DNA from: an uncultured Myxococcia bacterium
GTDB lineage: Bacteria > Myxococcota_A > UBA9042 > PHBI01
DNA length: 64,000 nt
Assembly: GCA_942493285.1 (NCBI GenBank)
Contig: OW818691.1
Span: forward strand, 1,234,321 to 1,298,320
Reading direction: 5' to 3'
The notes below the pieces were generated by a model. The model saw only the letters and a program-made list of their open reading frames with translations, ran no database searches and was not told where the DNA came from. Made by a program: the position numbers and the translations under genes. Below, piece after piece: positions 6,292-62,181 of the stretch; positions within the stretch are counted from its first letter, which is position 1, and each line of letters opens with the position of its first letter.

Positions 6292-6367
6292 GTCCCGCCG
6301 AGCCCCTCTCCGCGTCCGCTCGACTCTCTCATCGACCGGTCCCGCTCGTCGCTTTCGCCATTCAAAC

Positions 6368-25648: not shown

Positions 25649-25740
25649 AACAAGCGCATCGAACTGACGCGGCCTAATCGCGATGGGGCCTATCAGCCCC
25701 ATCGCGATTGATCGGCCGCGCAGCTCATGCGCAGGACGTT
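25649..25740 (+). repeat. attC-like palindrome, copy 9
   Basis: Full-consensus copy. Confidence 0.9.
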
Positions 25741-28246: not shown

Positions 28247-28338
28247 AACAAGCGTATCGACCTGACACGGCCTAATCGCGATGGGGCCTATCAGCCCCAT
28301 CGCGATTGATCGGCCGCGCAGGTCATACGCAGGACGTT
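28247..28338 (+). repeat. attC-like palindrome, copy 10 (gcgtatcgacctgacacgg / caggtcatacg variant, same subtype as copy 1)
   Basis: Left and right arm changes are mutually compensatory. Confidence 0.9.
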
Positions 28339-28545
28339 GTCCCGCGAAGCCTCTCCACTCTGGCTCGACTCTCCTCGCGCTCGGCTTCGACTGGACTCTC
28401 CTTCCTCCCCTTCCGGCCGGACTGTCTATACTTCGGCCCCGGCTGGACACTCCGTCCTTCCCTCCCGGCTGGATGTTCCGTCCTCCGTCCCGGCCACTAG
28501 TCATGCCACGCCGCCCCGATGGGCGCTTCGAGGTGTAGGCCTCCC

Positions 28546-30111: not shown

Positions 30112-30628
30112 TTCCCGCCCCCTCGTTGAGACGTCGTTCTATCACACTCACGGCCCACGCGCCAGCGTCGCCCCGAGCCTACAGAGCCTCACCGAGATGA
30201 AAGCGAAGGAAGGCCGCTTTTCGGCACGACTTCTGCGATGCTTTCGTGTCACCGGCTCTTCAGAGTCTGCGCCCAATACAGTGTGGGAGAATGTCGCAAC
30301 TGCTCAGCCGAAAGCCGGTCACACCCCCGGACTCACTCCACGGGTCACACCCCCGGACTCACTCCAATCGCGTCACACGCGCCGAGTCACTCCAGTATCG
30401 GGCGGCGCCCAGCCCTATCAGCCACACGCGGGGCTCAGGCAGCTCCTTGCGGGGCTCAGGCAGCTCATTGCGCGTGCGGATAGCGGCTTGCGGAACTCCG
30501 GTGGTTCGTTGCGGGGCTCAGCTCGCCTGGTCATGATTGCGGTCGGCGAGCACCCGCCATTGCCACTCGACCAGTCGCTCCGTCTCTTCCTCGACGCGCA
30601 AATCCGCTCCAACGCGGCTTCGCGGGAC

Positions 30629-31399: not shown

Positions 31400-32600
31400 C
31401 AGTACTCCGCTTGGAGGCGGGGGCGCCCCCTCCAGAGTTCGGCAAGTCGTGCTTGTGGCTTCAGTCTCTCATGCGGCGGCGGCGAGTCGGTTGATGTTGT
31501 TGATTTTGACCAGGTTGAAGGCGGCACCGACGAGCTTGGCGAACCATCCGATTCGTTCGAGCCCTCGATATCGAGCCCGCTTCATGCGACCTGGTTGCTT
31601 CATCCAACCGAAGACCGCTTCTATCTCGCGCCGCTTGATCAAGCTGATGGCATAGCCGGGAAACCGCGTCGTCCTGGAGTCGATGTTCGACTTGCGGCGG
31701 CCTGGCTGCTCGTTTCTCGCGACATGCGGCGTGACGTTGCGGTCGCGCAGCTGGTCAACGAAGTCTTTGGTGTCATAGGCTTTGTCAGCCCCAAGCGTGA
31801 TGCGAGACGTCCCCGCAAGGTTCTCATCGATCATGGCGATGGCCGCATCGCGCTCGATGGTGCCCGTGACGATGTCAGCGCGGGTGTCGACGATCAGTCC
31901 GTTGCGGTTCTCCATCAGCGCATTCACGGCATAGGAGAGTTCGGCTCCAGACCCGGCGCTCTTGCGAGCCAGTCGAGAATCGGGGTCCGTCGTTGACGCA
32001 TGGGTGTCATTCGAGCGCTTCTCGCCCTTGAAGTCTGACCAACCGTTCGAGTCACCAGGGTCTGAGTCCTTGGGCTTGAAGCTCTTGTGGGACGCCATCG
32101 CAGTGATGATGGTGCCGTCCACCGAGAAGTGTTCATTGCTCATCAAGCCAGCGGTCTCGGCCTGCGCCACGATGGACTTGAGGAACGCATTGGCGACATC
32201 GTGCTCGATGAGTCGCTCCCGGTTCTTCGAGAATGTGGATGCATCGAAAGCGGGGCCCGTGAGGTCCATGTCTACGAACCAACGGAACAGCATGTTGTAC
32301 TCGAGCTGCTCGCAGATTTGGCGCTCGCTCCGGACCGAGAAGAGCACCATCAGGAGCAGCGTCTTGAGCTGCCGTTCGGGCGGGATCGACGGCCGACCCA
32401 CGCTGCTATACATACTCTCGAACGTCCCATCGAGCTCCGCCAGAGCCGCATCAGCCAGCTTCTTGATGCCTCTGAGCGGATGGCTCGGTGGCACGAGTGA
32501 GCCGGGCGAGACGAGCATGAGCATGGAGGGCTGACTGGTTTTGGAGCCGCGCATACGCGCGTTAGATCATAGGGTTAGGAGAAAGTCGATCCGGCTTCTG
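31400..32600 (-). mobile_element. IS5-family insertion sequence (approximate bounds)
   Basis: Contains IS5-family DDE transposase ORF; ends not mapped. Confidence 0.45.
31469..32554 (-). CDS. IS5-family DDE transposase
   Basis: 361 aa; N-terminal InsH-like region (PERQLKTLLLMVLFSVRSERQ) and DDE region (ADKAYD..., FGWMKQ...R). Confidence 0.6.
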   Translation of the reverse strand: MRGSKTSQPSMLMLVSPGSLVPPSHPLRGIKKLADAALAELDGTFESMYSSVGRPSIPPERQLKTLLLMVLFSVRSERQICEQLEYNMLFRWFVDMDLTGPAFDASTFSKNRERLIEHDVANAFLKSIVAQAETAGLMSNEHFSVDGTIITAMASHKSFKPKDSDPGDSNGWSDFKGEKRSNDTHASTTDPDSRLARKSAGSGAELSYAVNALMENRNGLIVDTRADIVTGTIERDAAIAMIDENLAGTSRITLGADKAYDTKDFVDQLRDRNVTPHVARNEQPGRRKSNIDSRTTRFPGYAISLIKRREIEAVFGWMKQPGRMKRARYRGLERIGWFAKLVGAAFNLVKINNINRLAAAA

Positions 32601-34967: not shown

Positions 34968-35059
34968 AACAAGCGCATCGAACTGACGCGGCCTAATCGC
35001 GATGGGGCCTATCAGCCCCATCGCGATTGATCGGCCGCGCAGCTCATGCGCAGGACGTT
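34968..35059 (+). repeat. attC-like palindrome, copy 12
   Basis: Full-consensus copy. Confidence 0.9.
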
Positions 35060-35458
35060 GTCCCGCACGAGGCCTGCTCGTTCCCTCGCCTTCCTCACCG
35101 CCTTCCTCCGAGAGCGCCCCGCATCCCTCAAGGCCGCTGCTCCGCCTGCAGGCCCCTGTCGTCTCCTTGCCCTCCTCGCCTGACTCGCTTCTGGAGGGAC
35201 GTGCATCCCTCAAGCCCCCGATGCCGGTTCGGTTCCTGGCCCTACGCCTCCCGTTGCTCACTGGGGCGCATCCCCCTCGCAGGGTTGCTCCTCGAGCTCG
35301 CGGTTGAGGTCGCCAGAGTGTCCCAATCGGAGAGACACCTGGCACACTTGGGACAGTTGCGGGACACTTTCGCGAGAAATAGCTGCGTGTTTTCAAGGGG
35401 CTGAGGTTGGCCCGGCTCTTGCTCATGGGTTCGCGTTTCCCAACACGAGAACCCGGTT

Positions 35459-36637
35459 ATGCACACGGAACCTACACGGCTCATCTCTCCATCCGTTCAG
35501 GGGGTGATTCGGCAGTTCGCGCCCAGCTACATCGCGAAGAATGGCAAGGGGTTACCCCTGTCGCATCGCAAGGCGCTTCGCCTCCTCTCTCAGTGTCGAA
35601 CGGTCGCGCTTGGCGGTCACGTGGTCGAGTGCGGCAACTGCAAGGTGCAGGACTACACCTACCACTCGTGCGGCCACCGTTCTTGCCCTCGCTGCATGTC
35701 GGAGGACTGTGATGCGTGGCTTGGCGCTCGGCGGAGTGAGCTGTTGCCGGTTCCTTACTTCCACGTGGTGTACACGGTGCCGGAGGGGCTGAACGGCGTG
35801 GTGCGGAGTCATCAAGGGGAGCTGTATCCAGTGCTGATGCAGGCGGCGGGTAACTCGCTTCTGGCAGTTGCGGCCGCGCCTGACAACCTGGGGGGTAGGG
35901 TAGGGGTGATGTCGACGCTGCACACGTCGTCGAGTGCGCTGGCGTACCACCTTCACGTGCACTGCCTTGTCCCCGCGGGGTCGGTCGATGCAGAGGGCGA
36001 GTGGCATGACGCGAAGGACTCGCGCCTGGGGTCAGAGAGCGCGCTTGGCAAGGCTTTCCGGGACAAGGTCGGTTCGATGATGAAGGCCGCAGTCCCGGAC
36101 GTTGCGCTGCCGGACGGGGTGTTCGACCTCGCGTGGAAGGTGCATCTCGAGGTACCGCAGCACGGGGCGGAGACGGTGCTTCGGTATCTGGGTCGCTCGG
36201 TTCACCGCGGCCCGATGAGTGACCACCGCATCGTGTCTGTGACCGAGACCCATGTCGTGTTCAAGTATCGGGACAAGGACCGCACGAAGGCCAAGACGAT
36301 GTGCGTGGACGGCCACGAGTTCCTTCGTCGCTTCCTGCAGCATGTTTGGCCCGACCGGGTGCACAAGGTGCGCTACGCTGGCTTGTGGAGTCGGAAGTGT
36401 CGGGCGGAGCTTCGTGCACTCAGGCAGCGACTCCTGGCAGCCATGCAAGTCGAGCCACCTCCTGCGGTCGGGGAACCGAAACCGCTGCTACCCCCTGAGC
36501 CCGTCCTACCTCCGTGGCGTCGCTGCCCTCACTGCCAGGCGGAGCGGTTCATCGTGGCTCGCTTCAAGGCTGGAACCACCCCACCACCCCTGGTGGACCC
36601 GCTGCAGGGCACACTACCCGGGATAGACCCTCCCTGA
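35459..36637 (+). CDS. IS91-family (HUH Y2 rolling-circle) transposase
   Basis: N-terminal Zn-binding domain (ALGGHVVECGNCKVQDYTYHSCGHRSCPRCM), VPYFHVVYTVP, HUH motif HLHVHCLV, downstream tyrosines (LRYLGRSVH...). Confidence 0.8.
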   Translation: MHTEPTRLISPSVQGVIRQFAPSYIAKNGKGLPLSHRKALRLLSQCRTVALGGHVVECGNCKVQDYTYHSCGHRSCPRCMSEDCDAWLGARRSELLPVPYFHVVYTVPEGLNGVVRSHQGELYPVLMQAAGNSLLAVAAAPDNLGGRVGVMSTLHTSSSALAYHLHVHCLVPAGSVDAEGEWHDAKDSRLGSESALGKAFRDKVGSMMKAAVPDVALPDGVFDLAWKVHLEVPQHGAETVLRYLGRSVHRGPMSDHRIVSVTETHVVFKYRDKDRTKAKTMCVDGHEFLRRFLQHVWPDRVHKVRYAGLWSRKCRAELRALRQRLLAAMQVEPPPAVGEPKPLLPPEPVLPPWRRCPHCQAERFIVARFKAGTTPPPLVDPLQGTLPGIDPP

Positions 36638-37059
36638 TGGCGAAGCGACGGCCCTTCCGAGTATCCCGTATCCCGTCACGACCTCACGCACGAACGTGTG
36701 GTCGTCTCGCAGAGATCTGCCCTGTGAACGCCAGCGCAAGCCACTCCACGACCGATTTCGAGCGTCGGGAGCGTTCCACGCGCCACGAGTCCTCCAGTCT
36801 GCCAATCAGACTGCTCTACGGACCCGAAACCGAGGCCTCTTTGACCCGAAAAGGAGGCGATTCGGCTCCCCTCAGAGGGGCCTGCGAGGGGGCAGAACAT
36901 ATAAAATGCAGTAGGTCGCCTCGACCGCCACTGGCAAGGGTCTGCGAGCATTCGCCGTCGTCTCGAGGACAGGCCTTTCTTGGCCACCGCACTCACCGCA
37001 GGACCCCGACGCCCAATCAGCTGGAGTCGAGGCGCTAGCGACTTCAGACGTGCGGGGAC

Positions 37060-37151
37060 AACAAGCGCATCGAACTGACGCGGCCTAATCGCGATGGGGC
37101 CTATCAGCCCCATCGCGATTGATCGGCCGCGCAGCTCATGCGCAGGACGTT
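37060..37151 (+). repeat. attC-like palindrome, copy 13
   Basis: Full-consensus copy. Confidence 0.9.
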
Positions 37152-40298: not shown

Positions 40299-40390
40299 AA
40301 CAAGCGCATCGAACTGACGCGGCCTAATCGCGATGGGGCCTATCAGCCCCATCGCGATTGATCGGCCGCGCAGCTCATGCGCAGGACGTT
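40299..40390 (+). repeat. attC-like palindrome, copy 14
   Basis: Full-consensus copy. Confidence 0.9.
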
Positions 40391-40447
40391 GTCCCGCGAA
40401 GCCTGCTCCGTTCTCAGCTGGATTGACTGCATAGCCTCTTCCCCTCT

Positions 40448-40700
40448 CAGCTGGACTCACCATCATCCATCCTCGGGGTGGACTCACCATCATCCGTCCT
40501 CGGGGTGGACTCACCATCATCTGTCCTCGGGGTGCACTCACCATCATCCGTCCTCGGGCTCGAGTCACCATCAGCCGTCCTCGGGTTGGACTCACCATCA
40601 TCCATCCTCGGGCTCGACTCGCCGTCGTTCATTCTCGAGGTCGACTCACCACCATTCACCATCGGTCTTCGGACTGGGCTCGCCGTCGTTCATTCTCGGA
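40448..40700. repeat. 27-bp tandem repeat (GGTGGACTCACCATCATCCGTCCTCGG, ~10 units)
   Basis: Period 27 counted; starts ~55 bp after attC. Confidence 0.85.
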
Positions 40701-40759
40701 TGTGGCAATTCGGCTCCGTTGCGCACTCGCCGAACAGTCGGCACGCAGCGGACGCGGAA

Positions 40760-41620
40760 TCGATGGCGTGCTAATTTGCGATGAGATGGCTTGGTGTTAG
40801 CACGCATGTTTCCCCGCCGGACTCGTTCGATCGCAACCTCGGATGTGGACTTGAGGATCGACAATCCAAGAGCCTCACTTTCGGCGAGAAGACCTTCAGC
40901 GTGAAGCGCACGTCAAGTCGCGCGGGCCACTTTGCGATGAGAAGGCTTGGTGTTAGCACGTGTACCTCGATTCAGGGCTCTGCGTCGCGCACTTCCGTCG
41001 TGCACTCGGCGAACCACTCGGGTGCATGTTGAATCGGGGGCGTGCTAATTTACGATGAGAAGACTTGGTGTTAGCACGCGTGCCTCCTCGCCGAACTCCT
41101 TTGGTCTCATCCTCCCGGTACCTGCTGACGTCGGCTTGCCGCCCCTCGGTCGCTCGGCTCCGATGTGCACTCGCTGAACAGTTGGCGCGCGGTCCTCGTA
41201 GAATCGGGGGCGTGCTAATTTACGATGAGAAGACTTGGTGTTAGCACGCCTGCTTCCCCGCCGAACTCGTGCCGTCTCATCCTCCCCGTGCCCGCCGATG
41301 TCAGCTTGCCGACCCTCGGTCGCCCGGCTCCGATGCGCACTCGCTGAACAGTTGGCGCCCGGTCCTCGTAGAATCGGGGGCGTGCTAATTTACGATGAGA
41401 AGACTTGGTGTTAGCACGCCTGCTTTCCCGCCGAACTCGTGCGGTCTCATCCTCCCGGTGCCCGCCGAAGTCGGCTTGCCGCCCCTCGGTCGCTCGGCTC
41501 CGATGCGCACTCGCCGAACAGTTGAAGCGCGGTGCGTGTTGAATCGGGCGCGCGCTAATTTACGATGAGAAGACTTGGTGTTAGCTCGCGTGCTTTCTCG
41601 CCGAACTCGTACGGTAGCAG
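40760..41620. repeat. ~170-bp tandem repeat (5-6 units), each with a conserved 39-bp hairpin GCGTGCTAA-N21-TTAGCACGC
   Basis: Hairpin copies at ~40766, 40925, 41041, 41211, 41381, 41551; last four exactly 170 bp apart; no credible ORF. Confidence 0.85.
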
Positions 41621-41640
41621 AGCCACCTTCCATCCCCGCG

Positions 41641-41850
41641 TTGGACTGGCCATCGCTCATTCTCGGGCAGCCTCACGAGCGCGAGCTCTGGCTCGGACTC
41701 ACTGTCGTCCATTCTCAGGTGGCGCTCACCATCGTTGATTCTCGGGGCTGGGTTGAACGCACCACCTCCATTCTCCGAGGTGGACTCGCCATCGTTCAAT
41801 CTCGAGGTGGACTCGCCATCGTTCAATCTCGAGGTGGACTCGCCATGCGT
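41641..41850. repeat. 27-bp tandem repeat (GGTGGACTCGCCATCGTTCAATCTCGA family)
   Basis: Same family as 40448-40700. Confidence 0.75.
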
Positions 41851-42157: not shown

Positions 42158-42249
42158 AACAAGCGCATCGAACTGACGCGGCCTAATCGCGATGGGGCCT
42201 ATCAGCCCCATCGCGATTGATCGGCCGCGCAGCTCATGCGCAGGACGTT
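42158..42249 (+). repeat. attC-like palindrome, copy 15
   Basis: Full-consensus copy. Confidence 0.9.
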
Positions 42250-42357
42250 GTCCGGCGTGCGCACTCAGAACTGGTTGCACTTCAGCGACGCCCCGCGCCT
42301 GGTATCTCCCCACCCCTTCCTTCATCGGCGCTAACCGTCTTCTCGGGAGACGCTCCC

Positions 42358-42712
42358 CTCTGAGGTTGATGGCGTTCTGGAGGTCGCGCAGCGCGACGTT
42401 GACGCCTCGGCTCTGTCGCCGTCGCTCCTTTCTGCGCTTGTCGGCATCTCTCCCTCTGGGGTTGAATGTCGCTCTGGAGGTCCTGCCCGACGTTGACGCC
42501 TCGGTCACCGACGCTCTCGTCCGGCGCTCCTGTCGGCGGACGTTCGTCTCTGGGCTGGATGTCGCTCTTGAGGTCGCGGCGCGTCGTTGTGGTCCTCCTG
42601 GGAGCCTTCCCGACCGCTTGGCGCCTTGCCCTCAGCCCCTTCTGTCCCATCCGTGCGACACTTTGGGACGGTTTGGGACGGTTTGGGACAGCTATGGGAC
42701 AGTTTGGGGTTG
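42358..42712. repeat. ~95-bp degenerate direct repeats (x2.5) followed by 10-bp GGGACRGTTT decamer repeats (x5)
   Basis: Visible repeated blocks TCTGRGGTTGAWTGTCGCTCTKGAGGTC...GACGTTGACGCCTCGG; decamers at 42655-42712; upstream of the diverged IS91-family transposase. Confidence 0.6.
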
Positions 42713-42884
42713 GCTTCACGTAGGCGTGATGCGGTCTTCATGGCTGGCATGGTTTTTGGCAAGAGCTCGGGTCCTCCAACTCAGGGACCTGAACATCTTG
42801 CCGCAATCGAGCCCTTCGACCTCAGCCATCTCCCTGTCTCTTGCTGACGTTCTTCGGCGGTTTGGTGCGAGGTACCGTTCGCGC

Positions 42885-43994
42885 ATGCGTGGGAGTTTGC
42901 CAGAGGAGCATCGGACTGCGATGCGGATGATCGAGAAGTGCCGCACGCCTGCTCTTGGCGGTCATGTTCTGGAGTGCGCGACGTGTGAGGGTGAGCAGGG
43001 GTATGCGTTCAACTCGTGCAATCATCGCTCGTGTCCGAAGTGCATGAGGGAGGCGTCAGCGAAATGGGTTGCAGCTCGGCACGAGGAAGTCCTCCCAGTG
43101 CCGTACTTCCATGTGGTTTTCACGGTGCCGCAGGAGCTGAACGCCATCGTTCGTGACGAGCAGCGGAAGCTCTATCCATTGTTGATGAAGGCGGCCGGGC
43201 AGGCCCTGGTCTCCATCGGGAAGTTGCCTGAGAACCTGGGTGCGACGCCGGCGGTGATGACGTCGCTGCACACGTCTTCGAATACACTCGTGTATCACCT
43301 CCATGTTCACTGTCTGGTTTCGGCTGGCGGTTTGGACGGGGAGGGGAATTGGAAGGCCTCGAAGTCCGAGACACTTGCCCCAACGCGCGCCCTTGGTGCC
43401 AGGTTCCGGTCTCGGGTACTTTCGCTGATGAAGTCAGCGGTGAAGGACCTCAGTGTCCCCGAGGCCGTGCTCAAGAAGGACTGGCAAGTCTACCTCGAGC
43501 TTCCCCACCACGGCACTCCGGCGTTGCTTGAGTACCTCAGTCGTCCGCTTCACTGCGGGCCGTTGTCGGAGTATCGCCTCGAGTCCATGACGGACGAGGA
43601 TGTGGTGTTCCGGTACCAGAAGAGTGGCGACCGGACCTGGCGCACGATGCGGTTGTCTGGACACGAGTTCCTTCGTCGGTTTCTGCAACACGTATGGCCC
43701 AGCGGTGTGCACCGGGTTCACTACTGTGGTCTGTGGCGTCGGAGGTGTCGTGAACAGCTTCGAGCTCTGCGCGCGCTCCTTCTCGGGTCAGCCCCCCCGG
43801 CACCGGCCGCCGCCCCAGTAGCAGCGCGTGCTGACGGGGATGTGCCCTCCGCTGACCTCGAGGTACCCCACTGGCTCAAGTGCCCGCACTGCGCCGGGAC
43901 GCGAGTCGTCGTCGCGCACTTCCGCGCAGGAGCGAAGCTGCCTCCGCTGACGCCACGCGGGTGGGGGGTAATCTCGCCGGAGCCACCGTCGTAG
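42885..43994 (+). CDS. IS91-family transposase, diverged second type (N-terminus may start earlier at a non-ATG codon)
   Basis: ALGGHVLECATCEGEQGYAFNSCNHRSCPKCM, VPYFHVVFTVP, HLHVHCLV; aligns along its length with the 35459-36637 transposase but with different sequence; 600-aa ORF-track call starts inside the attC repeat and is an artefact. Confidence 0.6.
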   Translation: MRGSLPEEHRTAMRMIEKCRTPALGGHVLECATCEGEQGYAFNSCNHRSCPKCMREASAKWVAARHEEVLPVPYFHVVFTVPQELNAIVRDEQRKLYPLLMKAAGQALVSIGKLPENLGATPAVMTSLHTSSNTLVYHLHVHCLVSAGGLDGEGNWKASKSETLAPTRALGARFRSRVLSLMKSAVKDLSVPEAVLKKDWQVYLELPHHGTPALLEYLSRPLHCGPLSEYRLESMTDEDVVFRYQKSGDRTWRTMRLSGHEFLRRFLQHVWPSGVHRVHYCGLWRRRCREQLRALRALLLGSAPPAPAAAPVAARADGDVPSADLEVPHWLKCPHCAGTRVVVAHFRAGAKLPPLTPRGWGVISPEPPS

Positions 43995-44315
43995 TGCAGC
44001 TCACACACCGCTCTGAATCCCACCTCGTCCTCATGGCCTCGCGAGCGGCCGTAAGGGACTGGTCCGTCCGGAGTCGGGTCAGCGCCCCCTCCGAATGCCA
44101 ATTCTTCTCTCTGAAGGCCCGTCAAAGTCGCCTCGAGACCACCCAACTTCCAAGAACCCCCTCGTCGAGGACCGAAAGCCGTCACCGCTCGCTCGCCTTC
44201 AGCCTCCTCCCTGACCACCAGATTCCTATATATCGCATAGGGCCCAGAGGTCCCTCTCGACGGCTTGCAGAGCGGCTCTCACGCCCACCCAAAGCCCATC
44301 CAATGGGCGCCGGAC

Positions 44316-44407
44316 AACAAGCGCATCGAACTGACGCGGCCTAATCGCGATGGGGCCTATCAGCCCCATCGCGATTGATCGGCCGCGCAGCTCATGCGCA
44401 GGACGTT
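44316..44407 (+). repeat. attC-like palindrome, copy 16
   Basis: Full-consensus copy. Confidence 0.9.
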
Positions 44408-47288: not shown

Positions 47289-47581
47289 GCACGTCCCGAT
47301 GCTCCTAGCTCTTCAAATGGCGAAATGGCCATGCATTTGCGCGCACTCACTCTCAAGTATTGCGTCACGTCTGGGAGCTGACGTTCCAAACGCATTCGCC
47401 AGGAGGCAGTTTCAATCGATTGTCGACAGGGCTCGATCTACACACGCGATTAGCGTTTGAGAGTCCGCCGCATTTGTTCTGCCGTTCGGATCGCGACCTC
47501 ACAGGCCGGCCAGAGCCTTCACGACAGCGCCCCCAGGATTGCGCACCGCAATTCGCACATCTTTTCGGAACGGCGCCCGAC

Positions 47582-47669
47582 AACAAGCGCATCGACCATG
47601 ACACCGCCTAATCGCGGGGGCGATGCGCCCCCGCGATTGATCGGCGGTGCAGGTCATGCGCAGGACGTT
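47582..47669 (+). repeat. attC-like palindrome, copy 17: 88-bp variant with compensatory changes (AATCGCGGGGGCG-atg-CGCCCCCGCGATT)
   Basis: Both hairpin arms changed so pairing is kept; arms gcatcgaccatgacacc / ggcggtgcaggtcatgcg also co-vary. Confidence 0.85.
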
Positions 47670-48068
47670 GTCCCGCACGAGGCCTGCTCGTTCCCTCGCC
47701 TTCCTCACCGCCTTCCTCCGAGAGCGACCCGCATCCCTCAAGGCCGCTGCTCCGCCTGCAGGCCCCTGTCGTCTCCTTGCCCTACACGCCGGACTCGCTC
47801 CTGGACGGACGTGCATCCCTCAAGCCCCCGATGCCGGGTCGGTTCCTGGCCCTACGCCTGGCGTTGCTCACTGGGCCGCATCCCCCTCGCAGGGTTGCTC
47901 CTCGCGCTCGCGGTTGAGGTCGCCAGAGTGTCCCAATCGGAGAGACACCTGGCACACTTGGGACAGTTGCGGGACACTTTCGCGAGAAATAGCTGCGTGT
48001 TTTCAAGGGGCTGAGGTTGGCCCGGCTCTTGCTCATGGGTTCGCGTTTCCCAACACGAGAACCCGGTT

Positions 48069-49247
48069 ATGCACACGGAACCTACACGGCTCATCTCTCC
48101 ATCCGTTCAGGGGGTGATTCGGCAGTTCGCGCCCAGCTACATCGCGAAGCATGGCAAGGGGTTACCCCTGTCGCATCGCAAGGCGCTTCGCCTCCTCTCT
48201 CAGTGTCGAACGGTCGCGCTTGGCGGTCACGTGGTCGAGTGCGGCAACTGCAAGGTGCAGGACTACACCTACCATTCTTGCGGCCACCGTTCGTGCCCTC
48301 GCTGCATGTCGGAGGACTGTGATGCGTGGCTTGGCGCTCGCCGGAGTGAGCTGTTGCCGGTTCCTTACTTCCACGTGGTGTACACGGTGCCGGAGGGGCT
48401 GAACGGCGTGGTGCGGAGTCATCAAGGGGAGCTGTATCCAGTGCTGATGCAGGCGGCTGGTAACTCGCTTCTCGCAGTTGCAGCCGCGCCTGAGAACCTG
48501 GGGGGTAGGGTAGGGGTGATGTCGACGCTGCACACGTCGTCGAGTGCGCTGGCGTACCACCTTCACGTGCACTGCCTTGTCCCGGCGGGGTCGGTCGATG
48601 CAGAGGGCGAGTGGCATGACGCGAAGGACTCGCGCCTTGGGTCAGAGAGCGCGCTGGGCAAGGCTTTCCGGGACAAGGTCGGTTCGATGATGAAGGCCGC
48701 AGTCCCCGACGTTGCGCTGCCGGACGGGGTGTTCGACCTCGCGTGGAAGGTGCATCTCGAGGTACCGCAGCACGGGGCGGAGACGGTGCTTCGGTATCTG
48801 GGTCGCTCGGTTCACCGCGGCCCGATGAGTGACCACCGCATCGTGTCTGTGACCGAGACCCATGTCGTGTTCAAGTATCGGGACAAGGACCGCACGAAGG
48901 CCAAGACGATGTGCTTGGACGGCCACGAGTTCCTGCGCCGCTTCCTGCAGCACGTCTGGCCCGACCGGGTGCACAAGGTGCGCTACGCCGGTCTGTGGAG
49001 TCGGGGCTGTCGTCCGCAGCTCCGCGCACTCAGGCAGCGACTCCTGGCAGCCATGCAAGTCGAGCCACCTCCCGCGGTTGGGGAACCGAAACCGCTGCTA
49101 CCCCCTGAGCCCGTCCTACCTCCGTGGCGTCGCTGCCCTCACTGCCAGGCGGAGCGGTTCATCGTGGCTCGCTTCAAGGCGGGAACCACCCCACCACCCC
49201 TGGTGGACCCGCTGCAGGGCACACTACCCGGGATAGACCCTCCCTGA
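48069..49247 (+). CDS. IS91-family transposase (copy 2)
   Basis: 392 aa, few substitutions relative to copy 1. Confidence 0.8.
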   Translation: MHTEPTRLISPSVQGVIRQFAPSYIAKHGKGLPLSHRKALRLLSQCRTVALGGHVVECGNCKVQDYTYHSCGHRSCPRCMSEDCDAWLGARRSELLPVPYFHVVYTVPEGLNGVVRSHQGELYPVLMQAAGNSLLAVAAAPENLGGRVGVMSTLHTSSSALAYHLHVHCLVPAGSVDAEGEWHDAKDSRLGSESALGKAFRDKVGSMMKAAVPDVALPDGVFDLAWKVHLEVPQHGAETVLRYLGRSVHRGPMSDHRIVSVTETHVVFKYRDKDRTKAKTMCLDGHEFLRRFLQHVWPDRVHKVRYAGLWSRGCRPQLRALRQRLLAAMQVEPPPAVGEPKPLLPPEPVLPPWRRCPHCQAERFIVARFKAGTTPPPLVDPLQGTLPGIDPP

Positions 49248-49669
49248 TGGCGAAGCGACGGCCCTTCCGAGTATCCCGTATCCCGTCACGACCTCACGCA
49301 CGAACGTGCGGTCGTCTCGCAGAGATCTGCCCTGTGAACGCCACCGCAAGCCACTCCACGACCGATTTCGAGCGTCGGGAGCGTTCCACGCACCACGAGT
49401 CCTCCAGACTGCCGATCAGACTGCTCTACGGACCCGAAACCGAGGCCTCTTTGACCCGAAAAGGAGGCGATTCGGCTCCCCTCAGAGGGGCCTGCGAGGG
49501 GGCAGAACATATAAAATGCAGTAGGTCACCTCGACCGCTACTGGCAAGGGTCTGCGAGCATTCGCCGTCGTCTCGAGGACTGGCCTTTCTTGGCCACCGC
49601 ACTCACCGCAGGCCCCCGAAGCCCAATCAGCTGGAGTCGAGGCGCTAGCGACTTCAGACGTGCGGGGAC

Positions 49670-49761
49670 AACAAGCGCATCGAACTGACGCGGCCTAATC
49701 GCGATGGGGCCTATCAGCCCCATCGCGATTGATCGGCCGCGCAGCTCATGCGCAGGACGTT
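49670..49761 (+). repeat. attC-like palindrome, copy 18
   Basis: Full-consensus copy. Confidence 0.9.
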
Positions 49762-50137: not shown

Positions 50138-51280
50138 ATGGTGCGGCGAATGTTCATCCATGAGCTCCCGGGCTGGCCGGGTCTGACTTGGGACGCGGGC
50201 GTCTTGGCCAACGCTCTTGGGCGGGTCCGGCACCGACAAGGTCGCCTGCTTGGGCGCATGGAGGCGCTAGGCTTTGACCTTCGCGACGAAGCGAGCGTCA
50301 TGGTCCTCACACGCGACGTGGTTGAGTCATCCGCGATTGAGGGGGAGCATCTCGACGCGACAGATGTGCGTTCCTCCATTGCACGGAGGCTGGGGCTGCC
50401 GCTCGCGGGATTGGCGTCGCCTCCAAGCCAGCGAGTGGAGGGCATCGTCGAGGTGCTGTTGGATGCGACGCAACGCGCGCGCAAAGGCCTGACCCAAGAG
50501 CGCCTATGGGGCTGGCATGCGGCGTTGTTTCCGACGGGCTTCAGTGGAATGCGTCGAATCACGGTAGGCGCTTGGCGGCCGCCTGAGGCAGGGCCAATGC
50601 AGGTAGTGTCCGGTCCAGTGGGACGGGAGCGCCTGCATTTCGAGGCTCCGGCCGCAGAACGACTCGCAACAGAGATGGGAGAGTTCCTTGCGTGGTTCGA
50701 GTCGTCAACGCAAGCTGCTGATGAACTCGATCCAGTGCTCATTGCCGCGATTGCCCACCTTTGGTTCATCACGATTCACCCGTTCGAGGATGGTAATGGC
50801 CGAATAGGGCGGGCTATAGCGGACATGGCGTTGGCACGCGCCGATGGGATTCCGCAGCGGTTCTATAGTCTCTCGTCGCAGCTCATGACAGAGCGCAAGG
50901 ACTACTACCGTGAGCTCGAAGCAGCTCAGCGCGGCAGTCTCGACATCACGGACTGGCTCGCGTGGTTCCTGGGCTGCTTGGACCGCGCCATTGACCGTTC
51001 CGATGATCTCGTGGCGGGTGTCATGAGGCGTGCGAAGATTTGGAGGCGAGCAGAGGAACAACCTGGGGTGAACGCTCGCCAGCGAACAGTCATTGAGCGC
51101 CTCCTGGGGGACTTCAAGGGGCACCTGACATCATCGAAGTATGCGACATTCGCAAAGTGTTCAAGTGACACGGCTCTACGCGATATCGAGAACTTGGTTG
51201 AACGAGGGATCCTTGTCCGCAATCCAAGTGGGGGACGGAGCACGAGCTATCGACTGGCAGAGGCCGAGTTGTTCTCATGA
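50138..51280 (+). CDS. Fic-family protein (AMPylase-type Fic/Doc toxin)
   Basis: Canonical Fic motif HPFEDGNGRIGR; 380 aa with N-terminal extension. Confidence 0.75.
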   Translation: MVRRMFIHELPGWPGLTWDAGVLANALGRVRHRQGRLLGRMEALGFDLRDEASVMVLTRDVVESSAIEGEHLDATDVRSSIARRLGLPLAGLASPPSQRVEGIVEVLLDATQRARKGLTQERLWGWHAALFPTGFSGMRRITVGAWRPPEAGPMQVVSGPVGRERLHFEAPAAERLATEMGEFLAWFESSTQAADELDPVLIAAIAHLWFITIHPFEDGNGRIGRAIADMALARADGIPQRFYSLSSQLMTERKDYYRELEAAQRGSLDITDWLAWFLGCLDRAIDRSDDLVAGVMRRAKIWRRAEEQPGVNARQRTVIERLLGDFKGHLTSSKYATFAKCSSDTALRDIENLVERGILVRNPSGGRSTSYRLAEAELFS

Positions 51281-51454: not shown

Positions 51455-51546
51455 AACAAGCGCATCGAACTGACGCGGCCTAATCGCGATGGGGCCTATC
51501 AGCCCCATCGCGATTGATCGGCCGCGCAGCTCATGCGCAGGACGTT
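51455..51546 (+). repeat. attC-like palindrome, copy 19
   Basis: Full-consensus copy. Confidence 0.9.
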
Positions 51547-51945
51547 GTCCCGCACGAGGCCTGCTCGTTCCCTCGCCTTCCTCACCGCCTTCCTCCGAGA
51601 GCGACCCGCATCCCTCAAGGCCGCTGCTCCGCCTGCAGGCCCCTGTCGTCTCCTTGCCCTACACGCCGGACTCGCTCCTGGACGGACGTGCATCCCTCAA
51701 GCCCCCGATGCCGGGTCGGTTCCTGGCCCTACGCCTGGCGTTGCTCACTGGGCCGCATCCCCCTCGCAGGGTTGCTCCTCGCGCTCGCGGTTGAGGTCGC
51801 CAGAGTGTCCCAATCGGAGAGACACCTGGCACACTTGGGACAGTTGCGGGACACTTTCGCGAGAAATAGCTGCGTGTTTTCAAGGGGCTGAGGTTGGCCC
51901 GGCTCTTGCTCATGGGTTCGCGTTTCCCAACACGAGAACCCGGTT

Positions 51946-53124
51946 ATGCACACGGAACCTACACGGCTCATCTCTCCATCCGTTCAGGGGGTGATTCGGC
52001 AGTTCGCGCCCAGCTACATCGCGAAGCATGGCAAGGGGTTACCCCTGTCGCATCGCAAGGCGCTTCGCCTCCTCTCTCAGTGTCGAACGGTCGCGCTTGG
52101 CGGTCACGTGGTCGAGTGCGGCAACTGCAAGGTGCAGGACTACACCTACCATTCTTGCGGCCACCGTTCGTGCCCTCGCTGCATGTCGGAGGACTGTGAT
52201 GCGTGGCTTGGCGCTCGCCGGAGTGAGCTGTTGCCGGTTCCTTACTTCCACGTGGTGTACACGGTGCCGGAGGGGCTGAACGGCGTGGTGCGGAGTCATC
52301 AAGGGGAGCTGTATCCAGTGCTGATGCAGGCGGCTGGTAACTCGCTTCTCGCAGTTGCAGCCGCGCCTGAGAACCGGGGGGGTAGGGTAGGGGTGATGTC
52401 GACGCTGCACACGTCGTCGAGTGCGCTGGCGTACCACCTTCACGTGCACTGCCTTGTCCCGGCGGGGTCGGTCGATGCAGAGGGCGAGTGGCATGACGCG
52501 AAGGACTCGCGCCTTGGGTCAGAGAGCGCGCTGGGCAAGGCTTTCCGGGACAAGGTCGGTTCGATGATGAAGGCCGCAGTCCCCGACGTTGCGCTGCCGG
52601 ACGGGGTGTTCGACCTCGCGTGGAAGGTGCATCTCGAGGTACCGCAGCACGGGGCGGAGACGGTGCTTCGGTATCTGGGTCGCTCGGTTCACCGCGGCCC
52701 GATGAGTGACCACCGCATCGTGTCTGTGACCGAGACCCATGTCGTGTTCAAGTATCGGGACAAGGACCGCACGAAGGCCAAGACGATGTGCTTGGACGGC
52801 CACGAGTTCCTGCGCCGCTTCCTGCAGCACGTCTGGCCCGACCGGGTGCACAAGGTGCGCTACGCCGGTCTGTGGAGTCGGGGCTGTCGTCCGCAGCTCC
52901 GCGCACTCAGGCAGCGACTCCTGGCAGCCATGCAAGTCGAGCCACCTCCCGCGGTTGGGGAACCGAAACCGCTGCTACCCCCTGAGCCCGTCCTACCTCC
53001 GTGGCGTCGCTGCCCTCACTGCCAGGCGGAGCGGTTCATCGTGGCTCGCTTCAAGGCGGGAACCACCCCACCACCCCTGGTGGACCCGCTGCAGGGCACA
53101 CTACCCGGGATAGACCCTCCCTGA
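51946..53124 (+). CDS. IS91-family transposase (copy 3)
   Basis: 392 aa. Confidence 0.8.
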   Translation: MHTEPTRLISPSVQGVIRQFAPSYIAKHGKGLPLSHRKALRLLSQCRTVALGGHVVECGNCKVQDYTYHSCGHRSCPRCMSEDCDAWLGARRSELLPVPYFHVVYTVPEGLNGVVRSHQGELYPVLMQAAGNSLLAVAAAPENRGGRVGVMSTLHTSSSALAYHLHVHCLVPAGSVDAEGEWHDAKDSRLGSESALGKAFRDKVGSMMKAAVPDVALPDGVFDLAWKVHLEVPQHGAETVLRYLGRSVHRGPMSDHRIVSVTETHVVFKYRDKDRTKAKTMCLDGHEFLRRFLQHVWPDRVHKVRYAGLWSRGCRPQLRALRQRLLAAMQVEPPPAVGEPKPLLPPEPVLPPWRRCPHCQAERFIVARFKAGTTPPPLVDPLQGTLPGIDPP

Positions 53125-53546
53125 TGGCGAAGCGACGGCCCTTCCGAGTATCCCGTATCCCGTCACGACCTCACGCACGAACGTGCGGTCGTCTCGCAGA
53201 GATCTGCCCTGTGAACGCCACCGCAAGCCACTCCACGACCGATTTCGAGCGTCGGGAGCGTTCCACGCACCACGAGTCCTCCAGACTGCCGATCAGACTG
53301 CTCTACGGACCCGAAACCGAGGCCTCTTTGACCCGAAAAGGAGGCGATTCGGCTCCCCTCAGAGGGGCCTGCGAGGGGGCAGAACATATAAAATGCAGTA
53401 GGTCACCTCGACCGCTACTGGCAAGGGTCTGCGAGCATTCGCCGTCGTCTCGAGGACTGGCCTTTCTTGGCCACCGCACTCACCGCAGGCCCCCGAAGCC
53501 CAATCAGCTGGAGTCGAGGCGCTAGCGACTTCAGACGTGCGGGGAC

Positions 53547-53638
53547 AACAAGCGCATCGAACTGACGCGGCCTAATCGCGATGGGGCCTATCAGCCCCAT
53601 CGCGATTGATCGGCCGCGCAGCTCATGCGCAGGACGTT
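53547..53638 (+). repeat. attC-like palindrome, copy 20
   Basis: Full-consensus copy. Confidence 0.9.
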
Positions 53639-53756
53639 GTCCCGCGAAGCCTGCTCCTTTCACAGCTGGACTGGCCGCGAAGCCTGCTCCTTTCACAGCT
53701 GGACTGTCCGCGACGCCTTCTCCGCTCTCACTTGGAGTCTCTGTCATCCATGCGCG

Positions 53757-53980
53757 AGGTGGACTCGCCGTCATCTATCCTCGGGGTGGACTCGCTGTCG
53801 TCCATCCTCGGGGTGGACTCGCCGTCATCCATCCTCGGGGTGGACTCGCCGTCATCCATCCCCGGGGTGGACTCGTCGTCGTTCATCCTCGAGGTGGACT
53901 CACCGTCGTTCATTCTCGGATTGGGCTCGTCGCCGTTCATTCTCGAGGTCGACTTACCGTCGTTTATTCTCGAGGTTCAC
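53757..53980. repeat. 27-bp tandem repeat (GGTGGACTCGCCGTCATCCATCCTCGG, ~9 units)
   Basis: Same family as cassette-14 repeats; preceded by a 36-bp direct duplication (53643-53712). Confidence 0.85.
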
Positions 53981-54002: not shown

Positions 54003-54450
54003 GCTGGACTTGGGATGTGACAGCCATGGCTGGACTTGGGATGTGACAGCCACGGCTGGACATGACAGCCACGGCTGGACATCGGAGGTGACAGCCACGG
54101 CTGGACATCGGAGGTGACAGCCACGGCTGGACATCGGATGTGACAGCCACGGCTGGACTTGGGATGTGACAGCAATGGCTGGACTTCGGATGTGACAGCC
54201 CCGGCTGGACATCGGAGGTGACAGCCACGGCTGGACTTGGGAGGTGACAGCCACGGCTGGACTTGGGATGTGACAGCCACGGCTGGACTTGGGATGTGAC
54301 AGCCACGGCTGGACCTGGGAGGTGACAGCCACGGCTGGACCTGGGAGGTGACAGCCACGGCTGGACTTGGGAAGTGACAGACGTGGCTGGGCTTGGGTTG
54401 AGATAGCCTCGGCTGGACTTGAGATGTGACAGCCATGCCTGGGCTTGGTC
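54003..54450. repeat. 26-bp tandem repeat (GGCTGGACTTGGGATGTGACAGCCAC, ~17 units)
   Basis: Period 26 counted. Confidence 0.85.
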
Positions 54451-55567: not shown

Positions 55568-55659
55568 AACAAGCGCATCGAACTGACGCGGCCTAATCGC
55601 GATGGGGCCTATCAGCCCCATCGCGATTGATCGGCCGCGCAGCTCATGCGCAGGACGTT
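55568..55659 (+). repeat. attC-like palindrome, copy 21
   Basis: Full-consensus copy. Confidence 0.9.
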
Positions 55660-56058
55660 GTCCCGCACGAGGCCTGCTCGTTCCCTCGCCTTCCTCACCG
55701 CCTTCCTCCGAGAGCGACCCGCATCCCTCAAGGCCGCTGCTCCGCCTGCAGGCCCCTGTCGTCTCCTTGCCCTACACGCCGGACTCGCTCCTGGACGGAC
55801 GTGCATCCCTCAAGCCCCCGATGCCGGGTCGGTTCCTGGCCCTACGCCTGGCGTTGCTCACTGGGCCGCATCCCCCTCGCAGGGTTGCTCCTCGCGCTCG
55901 CGGTTGAGGTCGCCAGAGTGTCCCAATCGGAGAGACACCTGGCACACTTGGGACAGTTGCGGGACACTTTCGCGAGAAATAGCTGCGTGTTTTCAAGGGG
56001 CTGAGGTTGGCCCGGCTCTTGCTCATGGGTTCGCGTTTCCCAACACGAGAACCCGGTT

Positions 56059-57237
56059 ATGCACACGGAACCTACACGGCTCATCTCTCCATCCGTTCAG
56101 GGGGTGATTCGGCAGTTCGCGCCCAGCTACATCGCGAAGCATGGCAAGGGGTTACCCCTGTCGCATCGCAAGGCGCTTCGCCTCCTCTCTCAGTGTCGAA
56201 CGGTCGCGCTTGGCGGTCACGTGGTCGAGTGCGGCAACTGCAAGGTGCAGGACTACACCTACCATTCTTGCGGCCACCGTTCGTGCCCTCGCTGCATGTC
56301 GGAGGACTGTGATGCGTGGCTTGGCGCTCGCCGGAGTGAGCTGTTGCCGGTTCCTTACTTCCACGTGGTGTACACGGTGCCGGAGGGGCTGAACGGCGTG
56401 GTGCGGAGTCATCAAGGGGAGCTGTATCCAGTGCTGATGCAGGCGGCTGGTAACTCGCTTCTCGCAGTTGCAGCCGCGCCTGAGAACCTGGGGGGTAGGG
56501 TAGGGGTGATGTCGACGCTGCACACGTCGTCGAGTGCGCTGGCGTACCACCTTCACGTGCACTGCCTTGTCCCGGCGGGGTCGGTCGATGCAGAGGGCGA
56601 GTGGCATGACGCGAAGGACTCGCGCCTTGGGTCAGAGAGCGCGCTGGGCAAGGCTTTCCGGGACAAGGTCGGTTCGATGATGAAGGCCGCAGTCCCCGAC
56701 GTTGCGCTGCCGGACGGGGTGTTCGACCTCGCGTGGAAGGTGCATCTCGAGGTACCGCAGCACGGGGCGGAGACGGTGCTTCGGTATCTGGGTCGCTCGG
56801 TTCACCGCGGCCCGATGAGTGACCACCGCATCGTGTCTGTGACCGAGACCCATGTCGTGTTCAAGTATCGGGACAAGGACCGCACGAAGGCCAAGACGAT
56901 GTGCTTGGACGGCCACGAGTTCCTGCGCCGCTTCCTGCAGCACGTCTGGCCCGACCGGGTGCACAAGGTGCGCTACGCCGGTCTGTGGAGTCGGGGCTGT
57001 CGTCCGCAGCTCCGCGCACTCAGGCAGCGACTCCTGGCAGCCATGCAAGTCGAGCCACCTCCCGCGGTTGGGGAACCGAAACCGCTGCTACCCCCTGAGC
57101 CCGTCCTACCTCCGTGGCGTCGCTGCCCTCACTGCCAGGCGGAGCGGTTCATCGTGGCTCGCTTCAAGGCGGGAACCACCCCACCACCCCTGGTGGACCC
57201 GCTGCAGGGCACACTACCCGGGATAGACCCTCCCTGA
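56059..57237 (+). CDS. IS91-family transposase (copy 4)
   Basis: 392 aa. Confidence 0.8.
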   Translation: MHTEPTRLISPSVQGVIRQFAPSYIAKHGKGLPLSHRKALRLLSQCRTVALGGHVVECGNCKVQDYTYHSCGHRSCPRCMSEDCDAWLGARRSELLPVPYFHVVYTVPEGLNGVVRSHQGELYPVLMQAAGNSLLAVAAAPENLGGRVGVMSTLHTSSSALAYHLHVHCLVPAGSVDAEGEWHDAKDSRLGSESALGKAFRDKVGSMMKAAVPDVALPDGVFDLAWKVHLEVPQHGAETVLRYLGRSVHRGPMSDHRIVSVTETHVVFKYRDKDRTKAKTMCLDGHEFLRRFLQHVWPDRVHKVRYAGLWSRGCRPQLRALRQRLLAAMQVEPPPAVGEPKPLLPPEPVLPPWRRCPHCQAERFIVARFKAGTTPPPLVDPLQGTLPGIDPP

Positions 57238-57659
57238 TGGCGAAGCGACGGCCCTTCCGAGTATCCCGTATCCCGTCACGACCTCACGCACGAACGTGCG
57301 GTCGTCTCGCAGAGATCTGCCCTGTGAACGCCACCGCAAGCCACTCCACGACCGATTTCGAGCGTCGGGAGCGTTCCACGCACCACGAGTCCTCCAGACT
57401 GCCGATCAGACTGCTCTACGGACCCGAAACCGAGGCCTCTTTGACCCGAAAAGGAGGCGATTCGGCTCCCCTCAGAGGGGCCTGCGAGGGGGCAGAACAT
57501 ATAAAATGCAGTAGGTCACCTCGACCGCTACTGGCAAGGGTCTGCGAGCATTCGCCGTCGTCTCGAGGACTGGCCTTTCTTGGCCACCGCACTCACCGCA
57601 GGCCCCCGAAGCCCAATCAGCTGGAGTCGAGGCGCTAGCGACTTCAGACGTGCGGGGAC

Positions 57660-57751
57660 AACAAGCGCATCGAACTGACGCGGCCTAATCGCGATGGGGC
57701 CTATCAGCCCCATCGCGATTGATCGGCCGCGCAGCTCATGCGCAGGACGTT
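57660..57751 (+). repeat. attC-like palindrome, copy 22
   Basis: Full-consensus copy. Confidence 0.9.
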
Positions 57752-57799
57752 GTCCCGCCGAGCCCTGTTCCGCGTCCGCTCGTCTTGTTCATCTACCGG

Positions 57800-58448
57800 C
57801 TCAACTGGCCTCACATTTGTACAGCCCCAGCTGGACTCGCAGGTGTAACGCCTCGGCTGGACTCGCAGGTGTACCGCTTCGGCTGGACTCGCAGGTGTAC
57901 CGCCTCGGCTGGACTCGCCAGTTGTACTGCCCCGGCTGGCCTCGCCAGTTGTACTGCCCCGGCTGGATTCGCAGTTCTACCGTCTCGGCTGGACTCGCAT
58001 TTGTACCGCTTCGGCAGTTGTAGCGCCTCGGCAGTTGTAGCGCCTCGGCAGTTGTACTGCCTCGGCTGGACTCGCAGTTGTACCGCGTCGGCTGGACTCG
58101 CAGTTGTACCGCGTCGGCTGGACTCGCAGTTGTACCGCGTCGGCTGGACTCGCAGTTGTACCGCGTCGGCTGGACTCGCAGTTGTACCGCGTCGGCTGGA
58201 CTCGCAGTTGTACCGCGTCGGCTGGACTCGCAGTTGTACCGCGTCGGCTGGACTCGCAGTTGTACCGCGTCGGCTGGACTCACAGTTGTACCGCGTCGGC
58301 TGGACTCGCAGTTGTACCGCGTCGGCTGGACTCGTAGTTGTACCGCGTCGGCTGGACTCGCAGTTGTACCGCCTCGGCAGTTGTACCGCGTCGGCTGACT
58401 CGCAGCTGTACAGCCCCGGCTGGACTCGCAGTTGTACAGCCCCGGCTC
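57800..58448. repeat. 26-bp tandem repeat (GGCTGGACTCGCAGTTGTACCGCGTC, ~25 units, central units near-identical)
   Basis: Period 26 counted; largest minisatellite in the window; begins ~50 bp after attC. Confidence 0.9.
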
Positions 58449-59637: not shown

Positions 59638-60028
59638 AGATTCCCACAGTATCGGAGGTTGGACTATGCGCCTTGAGAATCCCTCATGGCGCTTGAGCCG
59701 ATGGCCGTGTCTCGACGACGGCGGCAATTTCGCACTCACTTGGTATGGCTTGGCCTTCGCGACCATGGCATTCTTCACCTATCCTTCGACCGCCCTCCGC
59801 TGGCTGGTCAACCGTGGTGGCTCCCTCACGCCCAACGCAAGCCATCGCAGCCCCGAGCGGAACACCTGCAAGTCATCGTACTGACCGCTCGAAAGCACGA
59901 CGTAGCGCACGCGAACGGATGGCACCACGCACGCCAAATGCCCACCGCCATCGACCGATTCGAGTCCGAGACCTACGCGTGACGCCTCCCTCATCGCGCC
60001 ACTGCGGGCTAGCGCGGCCCGGCGGGAC

Positions 60029-60120
60029 AACAAGCGCATCGAACTGACGCGGCCTAATCGCGATGGGGCCTATCAGCCCCATCGCGATTGATCGGCCGCG
60101 CAGCTCATGCGCAGGACGTT
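60029..60120 (+). repeat. attC-like palindrome, copy 23
   Basis: Full-consensus copy. Confidence 0.9.
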
Positions 60121-61959: not shown

Positions 61960-62007
61960 TGGACCGACTGACGAATTGCGTCAACCTCCGCTGATGCGCA
62001 GGACGTT
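61960..62007 (+). repeat. Degenerate/truncated attC-like remnant (right arm ...gctgatgcgcaggacGTT only)
   Basis: Right arm and GTT retained; downstream 100 bp homologous to 5' leaders of the cassettes starting at 44408 and 60121. Confidence 0.6.
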
Positions 62008-62181
62008 GTCGGGCGTGTGCAGCCAGAACTCGTCGCAATCGAGAGCTCCCCGCGCCACGTAGGCAGCCACCCGACTCGGCACCGTTCGCGCCAAACAGCC
62101 ACCCACACGGCTCCCACGCGCAGCCAGCCGCCCCGCTGGGCTCGCCTCACGCGGCGGGCCGTCGACGCGGCCACGCCAACT

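Follow-up and report, generated by a model that had tools for sequence, protein, structure and literature searches.

The 64-kb stretch analyzed here (the window; G+C content, 60.8%) carries a series of gene cassettes, numbered from c1, that are separated by a recurring element of ~95 nt. This element, described in the sequence-only reading as a palindrome, occurs 22 times with the same 47-nt core, always in a single orientation and at spacings of 1.8 to 6.4 kb, and once in a diverged form. It is a textbook integron attC site. The ends read ...ACAAC and GTT..., the crossover at the copy between c20 and c21 is G|TT (57749/57750), and the bottom strand forms a fold of -46.9 kcal/mol (z -9.3) in which a 5-nt spacer stays unpaired and extrahelical bases are present, so both the inverted repeat and the fold of an attC site are found. 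Nearly all 21 cassettes begin with the reverse complement of their own end and not of the neighboring cassette's end, an integron-specific covariation; c2, for example, starts with GTTGTCCCGCCGAGCC and ends with GGCTCGGCGGGACAAC. The apparent exception, c16, holds the diverged attC (~82 to 86% identity), which divides this apparent 5.4-kb cassette into two. A variant attC on a related contig (L131, 2627-2727) shows paired compensatory changes in the stem, from CGCGATGGGGC/GCCCCATCGCG to CGTTACGGGGCC/GGCCCCGTAACG, and these provide direct covariation support for the hairpin. In addition, a region at approximately 61990-62114 resembles an attC end followed by the c16a leader (86%) and may represent a decayed cassette boundary.

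An integrase gene with attI and a promoter beside the array was not found within the window: tblastn with two related tyrosine recombinases as queries gave no match in the 64 kb, and no tyrosine recombinase was seen among the 28 ORFs scanned against Pfam (the window has 207 ORFs of at least 100 aa). The window therefore corresponds either to the interior of a large array or to an attC cluster without an integrase.

The cassettes are unusually long (1.8 to 6.4 kb), and defense- and toxin-type genes dominate their cargo, including a cNMP-binding plus TIR protein (Pycsar-effector-like), GmrSD, an AAA_21 ATPase, DUF6119/TIGR04141, DUF4062, Fic with DUF4172, and an IrrE-type M78 protease with a helix-turn-helix domain. 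Such cargo is typical of chromosomal integrons storing defense genes. The 358-aa product of the c21 cargo gene had a sole match among 5.8 billion proteins (P0133, 100% identity) and no match in Pfam, PADLOC, or NCBIfam. An insertion sequence with a DDE_Tnp_1/DUF772 transposase (31469-32554) is inserted in c11, whose 3' ~540 bp are 81% identical to those of c7. Cassette c14 appears to lack a real gene and to be an ORF-less cassette made of repeats. It contains ~4 to 5 copies of a 170-bp unit (40700-41654; TRF, 41031-41615) with a conserved 10-bp-stem hairpin (GGCGTGCTAA...TTAGCACGCC), for which no Rfam match was obtained.

Table 1. Features of the window discussed in the text, with positions counted from its first nucleotide
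Feature	Position	Strand	Details
22-bp minisatellites, unit GGTACCGAGCTACTCGATGCGG	c1, 2033-2330; c5, 12721-12848		13.5 and 5.8 copies; ~180 nt before attC
c2 type-A leader	2607-2653	+	
c2 array	2654-2840	+	TRF 26 x 7.0; includes two 16-bp truncated units
c3 type-A leader and array	6290-6670	+	Array 6367-6615, TRF 26 x 9.6; decayed units to ~6670
c6, c7, c9 leaders, TTGGCTGGCCCGTACCCTCA...	13121-13220, 15608-15705, 25739-25832		
Defense- and toxin-type cargo genes	10853-11773, 15910-17241, 26128-27984, 28546-30111, 17464-18489, 50138-51280, 13433-14521		
c10 type-B leader and decayed array	28337-28491	+	Array 28431-28491, TRF 26 x 2.3, degenerate
c10 cargo gene, DUF6119/TIGR04141	28546-30111	-	
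Possibly related 26-bp array at c10 3' end, core CCCCGGACTCAC	30317-30394	+	TRF; 231 nt before c10 attC core
c14 type-B leader and 27-bp array	40389-40700	+	Array 40452-40655, TRF 27 x 7.6
c14 second 27-bp array	41690-41846	+	TRF 41776-41846, 27 x 2.6; 1.3 kb from cassette start
Diverged attC in c16	47571-47667		
IS91-family transposase cassette, four copies	35058-37149, 47668-49759, 51545-53636, 55658-57749		97 to 100% identical
c19 type-B leader, tandemly duplicated	53637-53723	+	TRF 33 bp x 2.5; duplication starts 5 nt past crossover
c19 27-bp array (c19a)	53743-53963	+	TRF 27 x 8.2
c19 26-bp array (c19b), unit GGCTGGACTTGGGATGTGACAGCCAC	54003-54448	+	TRF 26 x 17.4; TGA in each unit
attC between c20 and c21 (R''-L''-loop-L'-R')	57655-57752	+	One of 22 identical-core copies
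c21 type-A leader	57750-57793	+	R' box plus extension TTGTCCCGCCGAGCC, then TCCGCGTCCGCTCG, then degenerate proto-unit
c21 minisatellite, whole	57794-58447	+	~25 head-to-tail 26-bp units; TRF 52 bp x 12.6, score 797
c21 array, degenerate 26/27-bp units	57794-58015	+	Unit-by-unit listing, sequence
c21 array, 17-bp truncated units	57997-58066	+	Unit-by-unit listing, sequence
c21 array, inner block, unit GGCTGGACTCGCAGTTGTACCGCGTC	58048-58378	+	TRF 26 bp x 12.7, 97% identity
c21 array, 3' edge, variant units	58377-58447	+	Unit-by-unit listing
c21 cargo gene, 358 aa	58561-59637	+	Starts 113 nt past array
3' part of common block (~45 nt, ...CTCATCGCGCCA...GCGCGGCCCGGCGGGACAAC) and attC closing c21	59975-60118	+	84.6% identity to L131 2581-2729

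The c21 array starts 45 nt past the recombination point and is built of head-to-tail units, the inner run being homogeneous (12 of 14 units identical in the unit listing) with older variants on either side. Comparable arrays follow the start of c2, c3, c10, c14, and c19 (Table 1). Tandem units of 26 to 27 bp in these six cassettes had been proposed from the letters, and both TRF and core counts far above chance now establish them: the core GGCTGGACTC occurs 23 times in the window (0.27 expected), and a three-core pattern gives 17 matches (0.00 expected). All 23 occurrences of the core lie on the plus strand, a relaxed core is found 60 times on the plus strand and twice on the minus strand, and 54 of the 60 plus-strand occurrences fall within the six repeat cassettes. 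The orientation of the arrays relative to attC is identical throughout and tracks the attC site and not the genes, in agreement with the tie to the recombination site that had been suspected. With head-to-tail units in the ~10- to 100-bp range, mismatches and indels between units, and frequencies far above chance, the arrays are minisatellites. Units abut with no unique spacers between them (sequence and unit listing), and the arrays are thus distinct from CRISPR arrays.

The tails of the units differ strongly between array types, and a unit core, GG(C/G)TGGAC, and the 26- to 27-bp period are common to them and recur in at least three sources: the window and the related contigs L131 and L098. 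The 26- and 27-bp forms are bridged by intermediate units (...ACTCACCGTTGTACCGCCCC in the second L131 cassette versus ...ACTCACCGTCGTTCATTCTC in c19a). A common leader of ~50 bp had been claimed for all six cassettes. A leader is indeed present in each; however, its first ~16 nt are the R' box plus paired extension of the attC site, as follows from the complementarity of each cassette start to its own end, and it splits into two types. In type A (c2, c3, and c21), the sequence is GTTGTCCCGCCGAGCC...TCCGCGTCCGCTCG, the R' extension being CCCGCCGAGCC and the 26-bp units ending in GCAGTTGTAC.... In type B (c10, c14, and c19), it is GTTGTCCCGCGAAGCC, without the ccgcgtccgctcg stretch; the R' extension is CCCGCGAAGCC, and the units are 27 bp long, to which c19 adds a divergent 26-bp array. 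The leader of c21 aligns with those of c2, c3, and both L131 cassettes, and its first 13 to 16 nt complement the end of c21 itself.

In all-against-all blastn of the cassettes, the six repeat cassettes are alike only over their first 240 to 700 bp and over ~45 nt before the attC core, and their cargo is unrelated. On a circular cassette these common parts are contiguous, in the order ~45 nt of cassette end, attC, R' extension with leader, and array. Judged by these alignments, the six arrays are not independent and descend from one attC-flanking block common to the cassettes. The position of the arrays is therefore inherited with the block and does not reflect six separate origins. This weakens the earlier argument that a fixed position next to the recombination site signals a function, as does the recombination of 15 of 23 cassettes through the same attC without such arrays. 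The position itself is also less fixed than was thought, since c14 carries a second array 1.3 kb into the cassette and c10 a possibly related one shortly before its attC.

Throughout this cassette array, 5' leaders seem to be conserved in families. Cassettes c6, c7, and c9 have a common leader of ~98 nt without tandem repeats, and c1 and c5 have a common 118-nt leader with different cargo. The latter two also carry minisatellites of 22-bp units, which look unrelated to the 26- to 27-bp arrays; c1 and c5 thus represent a second attC-flanking block, with its array on the opposite side of the hairpin.

Relatives beyond the window are few. A protein search with the array translation led to a further such cassette start in the same genome (P0131, 62% identical to c3) and, through P0132, to the ENA contig L131, which holds two type-A cassettes. 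In the first of these, the attC has the same central core as in the window (94 to 96% over ~95 nt); behind it come the leader, 13.8 units of a 26-bp array, and a minus-strand FGE-sulfatase-like gene. The second has the variant attC described above, a leader duplicated over 33 and 76 bp, 8 units, and genes on the plus strand. In metagenomes, a looser pattern identified one true relative among the 120 loci in the matches listed, the pattern being permissive and prone to chance matches. This locus, the JGI metagenome contig L098, starts within a 27-bp array, followed by one 170-bp hairpin unit of the c14 type (187-313) and a lipoprotein gene on the plus strand. Similarity to the window in blastn is confined to 139-642 and 2581-3122 on L131 and to 5-313 on L098. 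Among 185,579 species genomes, whose representatives do not include the source genome, the three-core pattern found no true relative; its five matches were rejected as unrelated repeats (13-bp periods and a Streptomyces coding repeat). No such arrays or block were found in viral contigs and plasmids. The repeat family is rare and lineage-restricted.

The arrays might encode repeat peptides, of 9 aa for the 27-bp units or 26 aa for three 26-bp units. All three plus frames and one minus frame can be read through the 27-bp arrays, giving VDSPSSILG on the plus and RMDDGESTP on the minus strand, and one such ORF (P0131) was picked up by a gene caller. However, the c3 array has stops in all six frames, and the TGA in each c19b unit closes all three plus frames of that array while its minus frames are open, a pattern opposite to that of most other arrays (open on plus, closed on minus). 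Most minus frames of c3, c14a, and c19a are closed by stops as well, so that no single frame is open across the arrays of the family on either strand, as would be seen in a tandem-repeat protein gene. The ORFs that cross the 27-bp arrays contain nothing but repeats, start inside attC or the repeats, and lack any nonrepeat domain, and variation among the 27-bp units shows no codon-position (3-nt) pattern. An HMMER search of 1.84 billion representative proteins with the array translation retrieved three true relatives only, each of them itself the translation of an array. Coding by the arrays is essentially excluded, a peptide product being largely refuted and hardly credible, and the earlier judgment that the arrays are probably noncoding is borne out. 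The spurious ORFs trace to two ATGs inside each conserved attC (e.g., 57694 and 57738) that open into the next cassette. P0131, annotated in the public genome, begins at such an ATG within attC, its MRRTLSRR being the translated attC end plus leader.

Bacterial minisatellites and VNTR loci consist of head-to-tail units of tens of base pairs in variable copy number, with decayed edges, homogenized centers, and truncated units, and are intergenic. The arrays described here share these unit, edge and center, and copy number features. Their edges are decayed and their centers homogeneous, copy numbers range from 2.3 to ~25, and truncated units of 14 to 19 bp are found in c2, c19, and c21 (unit listing). 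The second L131 cassette displays an alternating two-unit higher-order pattern, and c21 has ~25 units versus 8 in that cassette, despite an identical leader subtype. Copy number differences and concerted evolution of the VNTR kind are thus seen between paralogous and related loci. In contrast to VNTR loci, the arrays form a multilocus family that is spread by cassettes and uniformly oriented to a recombination hairpin, in a window of extreme tandem repeat density, 5.8% of it being tandem arrays. These are 21 in number with periods of 14 to 170 bp, and most lie within ~370 nt past a crossover or 150 to 310 nt before an attC core. So many arrays of different periods, together with the leader duplications, point to a tendency of the whole region to duplicate in tandem rather than to selection of one sequence. 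A sharp boundary between array and cargo at the core, which would hint at site-specific joining, was rejected because the 3' edges decay gradually.

On balance we lean, with modest confidence, toward slippage-driven minisatellites that are functionless or selfish and are inherited with the attC-flanking block. Among the origins offered by the sequence-only reading, slipped-strand events are the best supported, by the decayed edges, homogeneous centers, and truncated units. The noncoding minisatellites sit in the 5' leader of one integron cassette lineage, in which the block (cassette end, attC, R' extension with leader, and array) is kept while the cargo is swapped. The arrays would expand, contract, and homogenize through slipped-strand mispairing and unequal sister-strand exchange, and they would move with the cassette at each excision and reinsertion at G|TT. 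The adjoining strong attC hairpin probably favors slippage, plausibly via fork stalling and template slippage. The arrays would be dispensable for recombination, would play no cis role for the cargo, and most likely would have no sequence-specific function. Several observations stand against slippage as the whole explanation. Core and period persist across array types and sources, possibly because of constraint. An array is present in each member of the A/B lineage whose start can be seen (six cassettes in the window, two in L131, plus P0131), and only that of c10 has decayed. The orientation relative to attC is uniform, and the type-A motif GTTGTAC(C/T)GC(C/G) matches the R' box and extension at 9 to 10 of 11 positions (p ~0.01 per array).

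Some of the same observations would favor units that act as iterons, bound by the integron integrase or by a host or nucleoid factor and tuning recombination at the adjoining attC. Direct repeats of ~20 to 40 bp with a conserved core lie near a recombination or partition site in attI1 (DR1/DR2), in plasmid iterons, and in sopC/parC. The arrays resemble these in adjoining a recombination site and in having a conserved core, here with a 26- to 27-bp period, variable tails, and strict orientation relative to attC. The R'-like GTTGTACCGC(G/C) of type-A units (9 to 10 of 11, p ~0.01) and short dyads at unit junctions (GTACAGCC-CC-GGCTGGAC, CAGCC-AC-GGCTG, and GTCCTC-GGG-GTGGAC) fit such a role as well. 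However, type B, c19b, and the 22-bp units do not show the R'-like match, and the similarity to an integrase core site is thus limited to one subtype. The dyad is degraded in c21b, the most expanded array, and within types the core is conserved barely above the tail (0.89/0.80, 0.88/0.82, and 0.95/0.89, figures that core anchoring biases upward). Most cassettes recombine without arrays, no candidate gene for a binding protein is linked to the arrays, and no integrase was found in the window. Unlike attI1 DR1/DR2, iterons, and sopC/parC, the repeats flank attC and not attI, lack a linked gene for a cognate protein, and are far higher and unstable in copy number. We consider this analogy-based role unlikely. 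A related idea, that the units are copies of the R' box plus leader, was rejected, the 11-mer match occurring in type A only and the whole-unit alignment to the cassette start being nonsignificant; it is at most a weak lead.

It is very improbable, in our estimation, that the arrays act in transcription or as RNA, be it as a read-through leader, a cassette promoter, or a protein-titrating repeat RNA. They do lie just downstream of attC, in what would be the 5' part of any read-through transcript, promoters or regulatory RNAs have been suggested for noncoding Vibrio cassettes (PMC1382264), and c19b units fold better than shuffles (z -4.0). Yet the strand of the cargo relative to the array varies, being minus in c10, c19 (a two-gene operon), and the first L131 cassette and plus in c21, L098, and the second L131 cassette. 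This makes the promoter or terminator role that had been suggested unlikely, as does a scan for sigma-70 and terminator consensus sites, which revealed nothing above shuffled expectation. Compared with shuffles, only c19b (both strands) and the minus strand of the 22-bp units fold better, the plus strands of the c21, c14, and 22-bp units giving z values of +0.9, +0.95, and -0.2. This lack of a consistent unit structure argues against a single-strand origin or a structured RNA. In addition, Rfam 15 gave no match at the gathering score in the window (chance-level matches only in c14), and unit sequences turn over fast. G-quadruplexes and a CsrA sponge were dropped from the sequence alone, the G-runs being too far apart and the 22-bp units having no GGA.

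The attC-flanking block might also be a portable noncoding scaffold (an "empty cassette" like c14) that is repeatedly loaded with unrelated genes, with the arrays as possible landing pads for integrase or host factors. We regard this as quite unlikely. If true, cassettes would be born by cargo loading, which offers a testable handle on the origin of integron cassettes. The common noncoding block spans ~0.2 to 0.9 kb across both sides of attC and is conserved between cassettes and between organisms. Such conservation next to unrelated cargo is unexpected if attC is merely added 3' of a gene, and it thus bears on how cassettes are made; a flanking scaffold with exchangeable cargo is more worth following than the repeats themselves. 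Should the integrase bind to the units, accessory sites would for the first time be described at attC and not at attI. Even as slippage products, the arrays would provide hypervariable markers of cassette lineages, explain assembly breaks within such arrays, and serve as an annotation warning, given that gene callers yield spurious ORFs from an ATG inside attC.

An attC-spanning noncoding block that is common to unrelated cargo and consists mostly of minisatellite is new here, and no account of tandem repeats in integron cassettes emerged from our literature searches. Besides ordinary bacterial VNTRs, the closest parallel is with ORF-less cassettes of Vibrio arrays, which are paralogous and lineage-restricted and which Boucher et al. 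(2006, PMC1382264) took to be selfish or regulatory. As in Vibrio, the noncoding cassette DNA seen here has paralogues in the same array, is confined to close relatives, and is conserved across species, and c14 is essentially ORF-less and built of repeats. The present block differs in lying on both sides of attC with unrelated cargo, in not being a whole cassette, and in being mainly minisatellite. Near-identical species-specific attC sites, G|TT boundaries, and defense-type cargo are shared with defense-carrying sedentary chromosomal integrons (bioRxiv 10.1101/2024.07.02.601686). The present case differs in its long cassettes (1.8 to 6.4 kb), in a window with no intI, and in 5' leaders that fall into conserved families.

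Finally, an IS91-family transposase (Y2_Tnp plus Zn_Tnp_IS91, 392 aa) occupies an exact cassette of 2092 bp that has matching flanks of its own. A link of this transposase to the repeats was rejected: the gene is cassette cargo, has its own flank type, and is without the repeat motif, and two of its four copies precede repeat cassettes, which is unremarkable. A divergent 600-aa paralogue is present in c15 (42248-44405), and homologues are abundant on ~2-kb metagenome contigs. At a distant metagenome locus (L006), a 46%-identical homologue forms a cassette between its own attC-like sites, near a tyrosine recombinase. At another (L010, 2151-5548), a tyrosine recombinase gene disrupted by an IS256-type element immediately precedes a Y2 transposase gene in the same orientation. 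The best NCBIfam match of this recombinase is integron integrase, below the cutoff (113 versus 265 bits), and the two-gene IS91-family layout hints at an evolutionary link of these recombinases to integron integrases.
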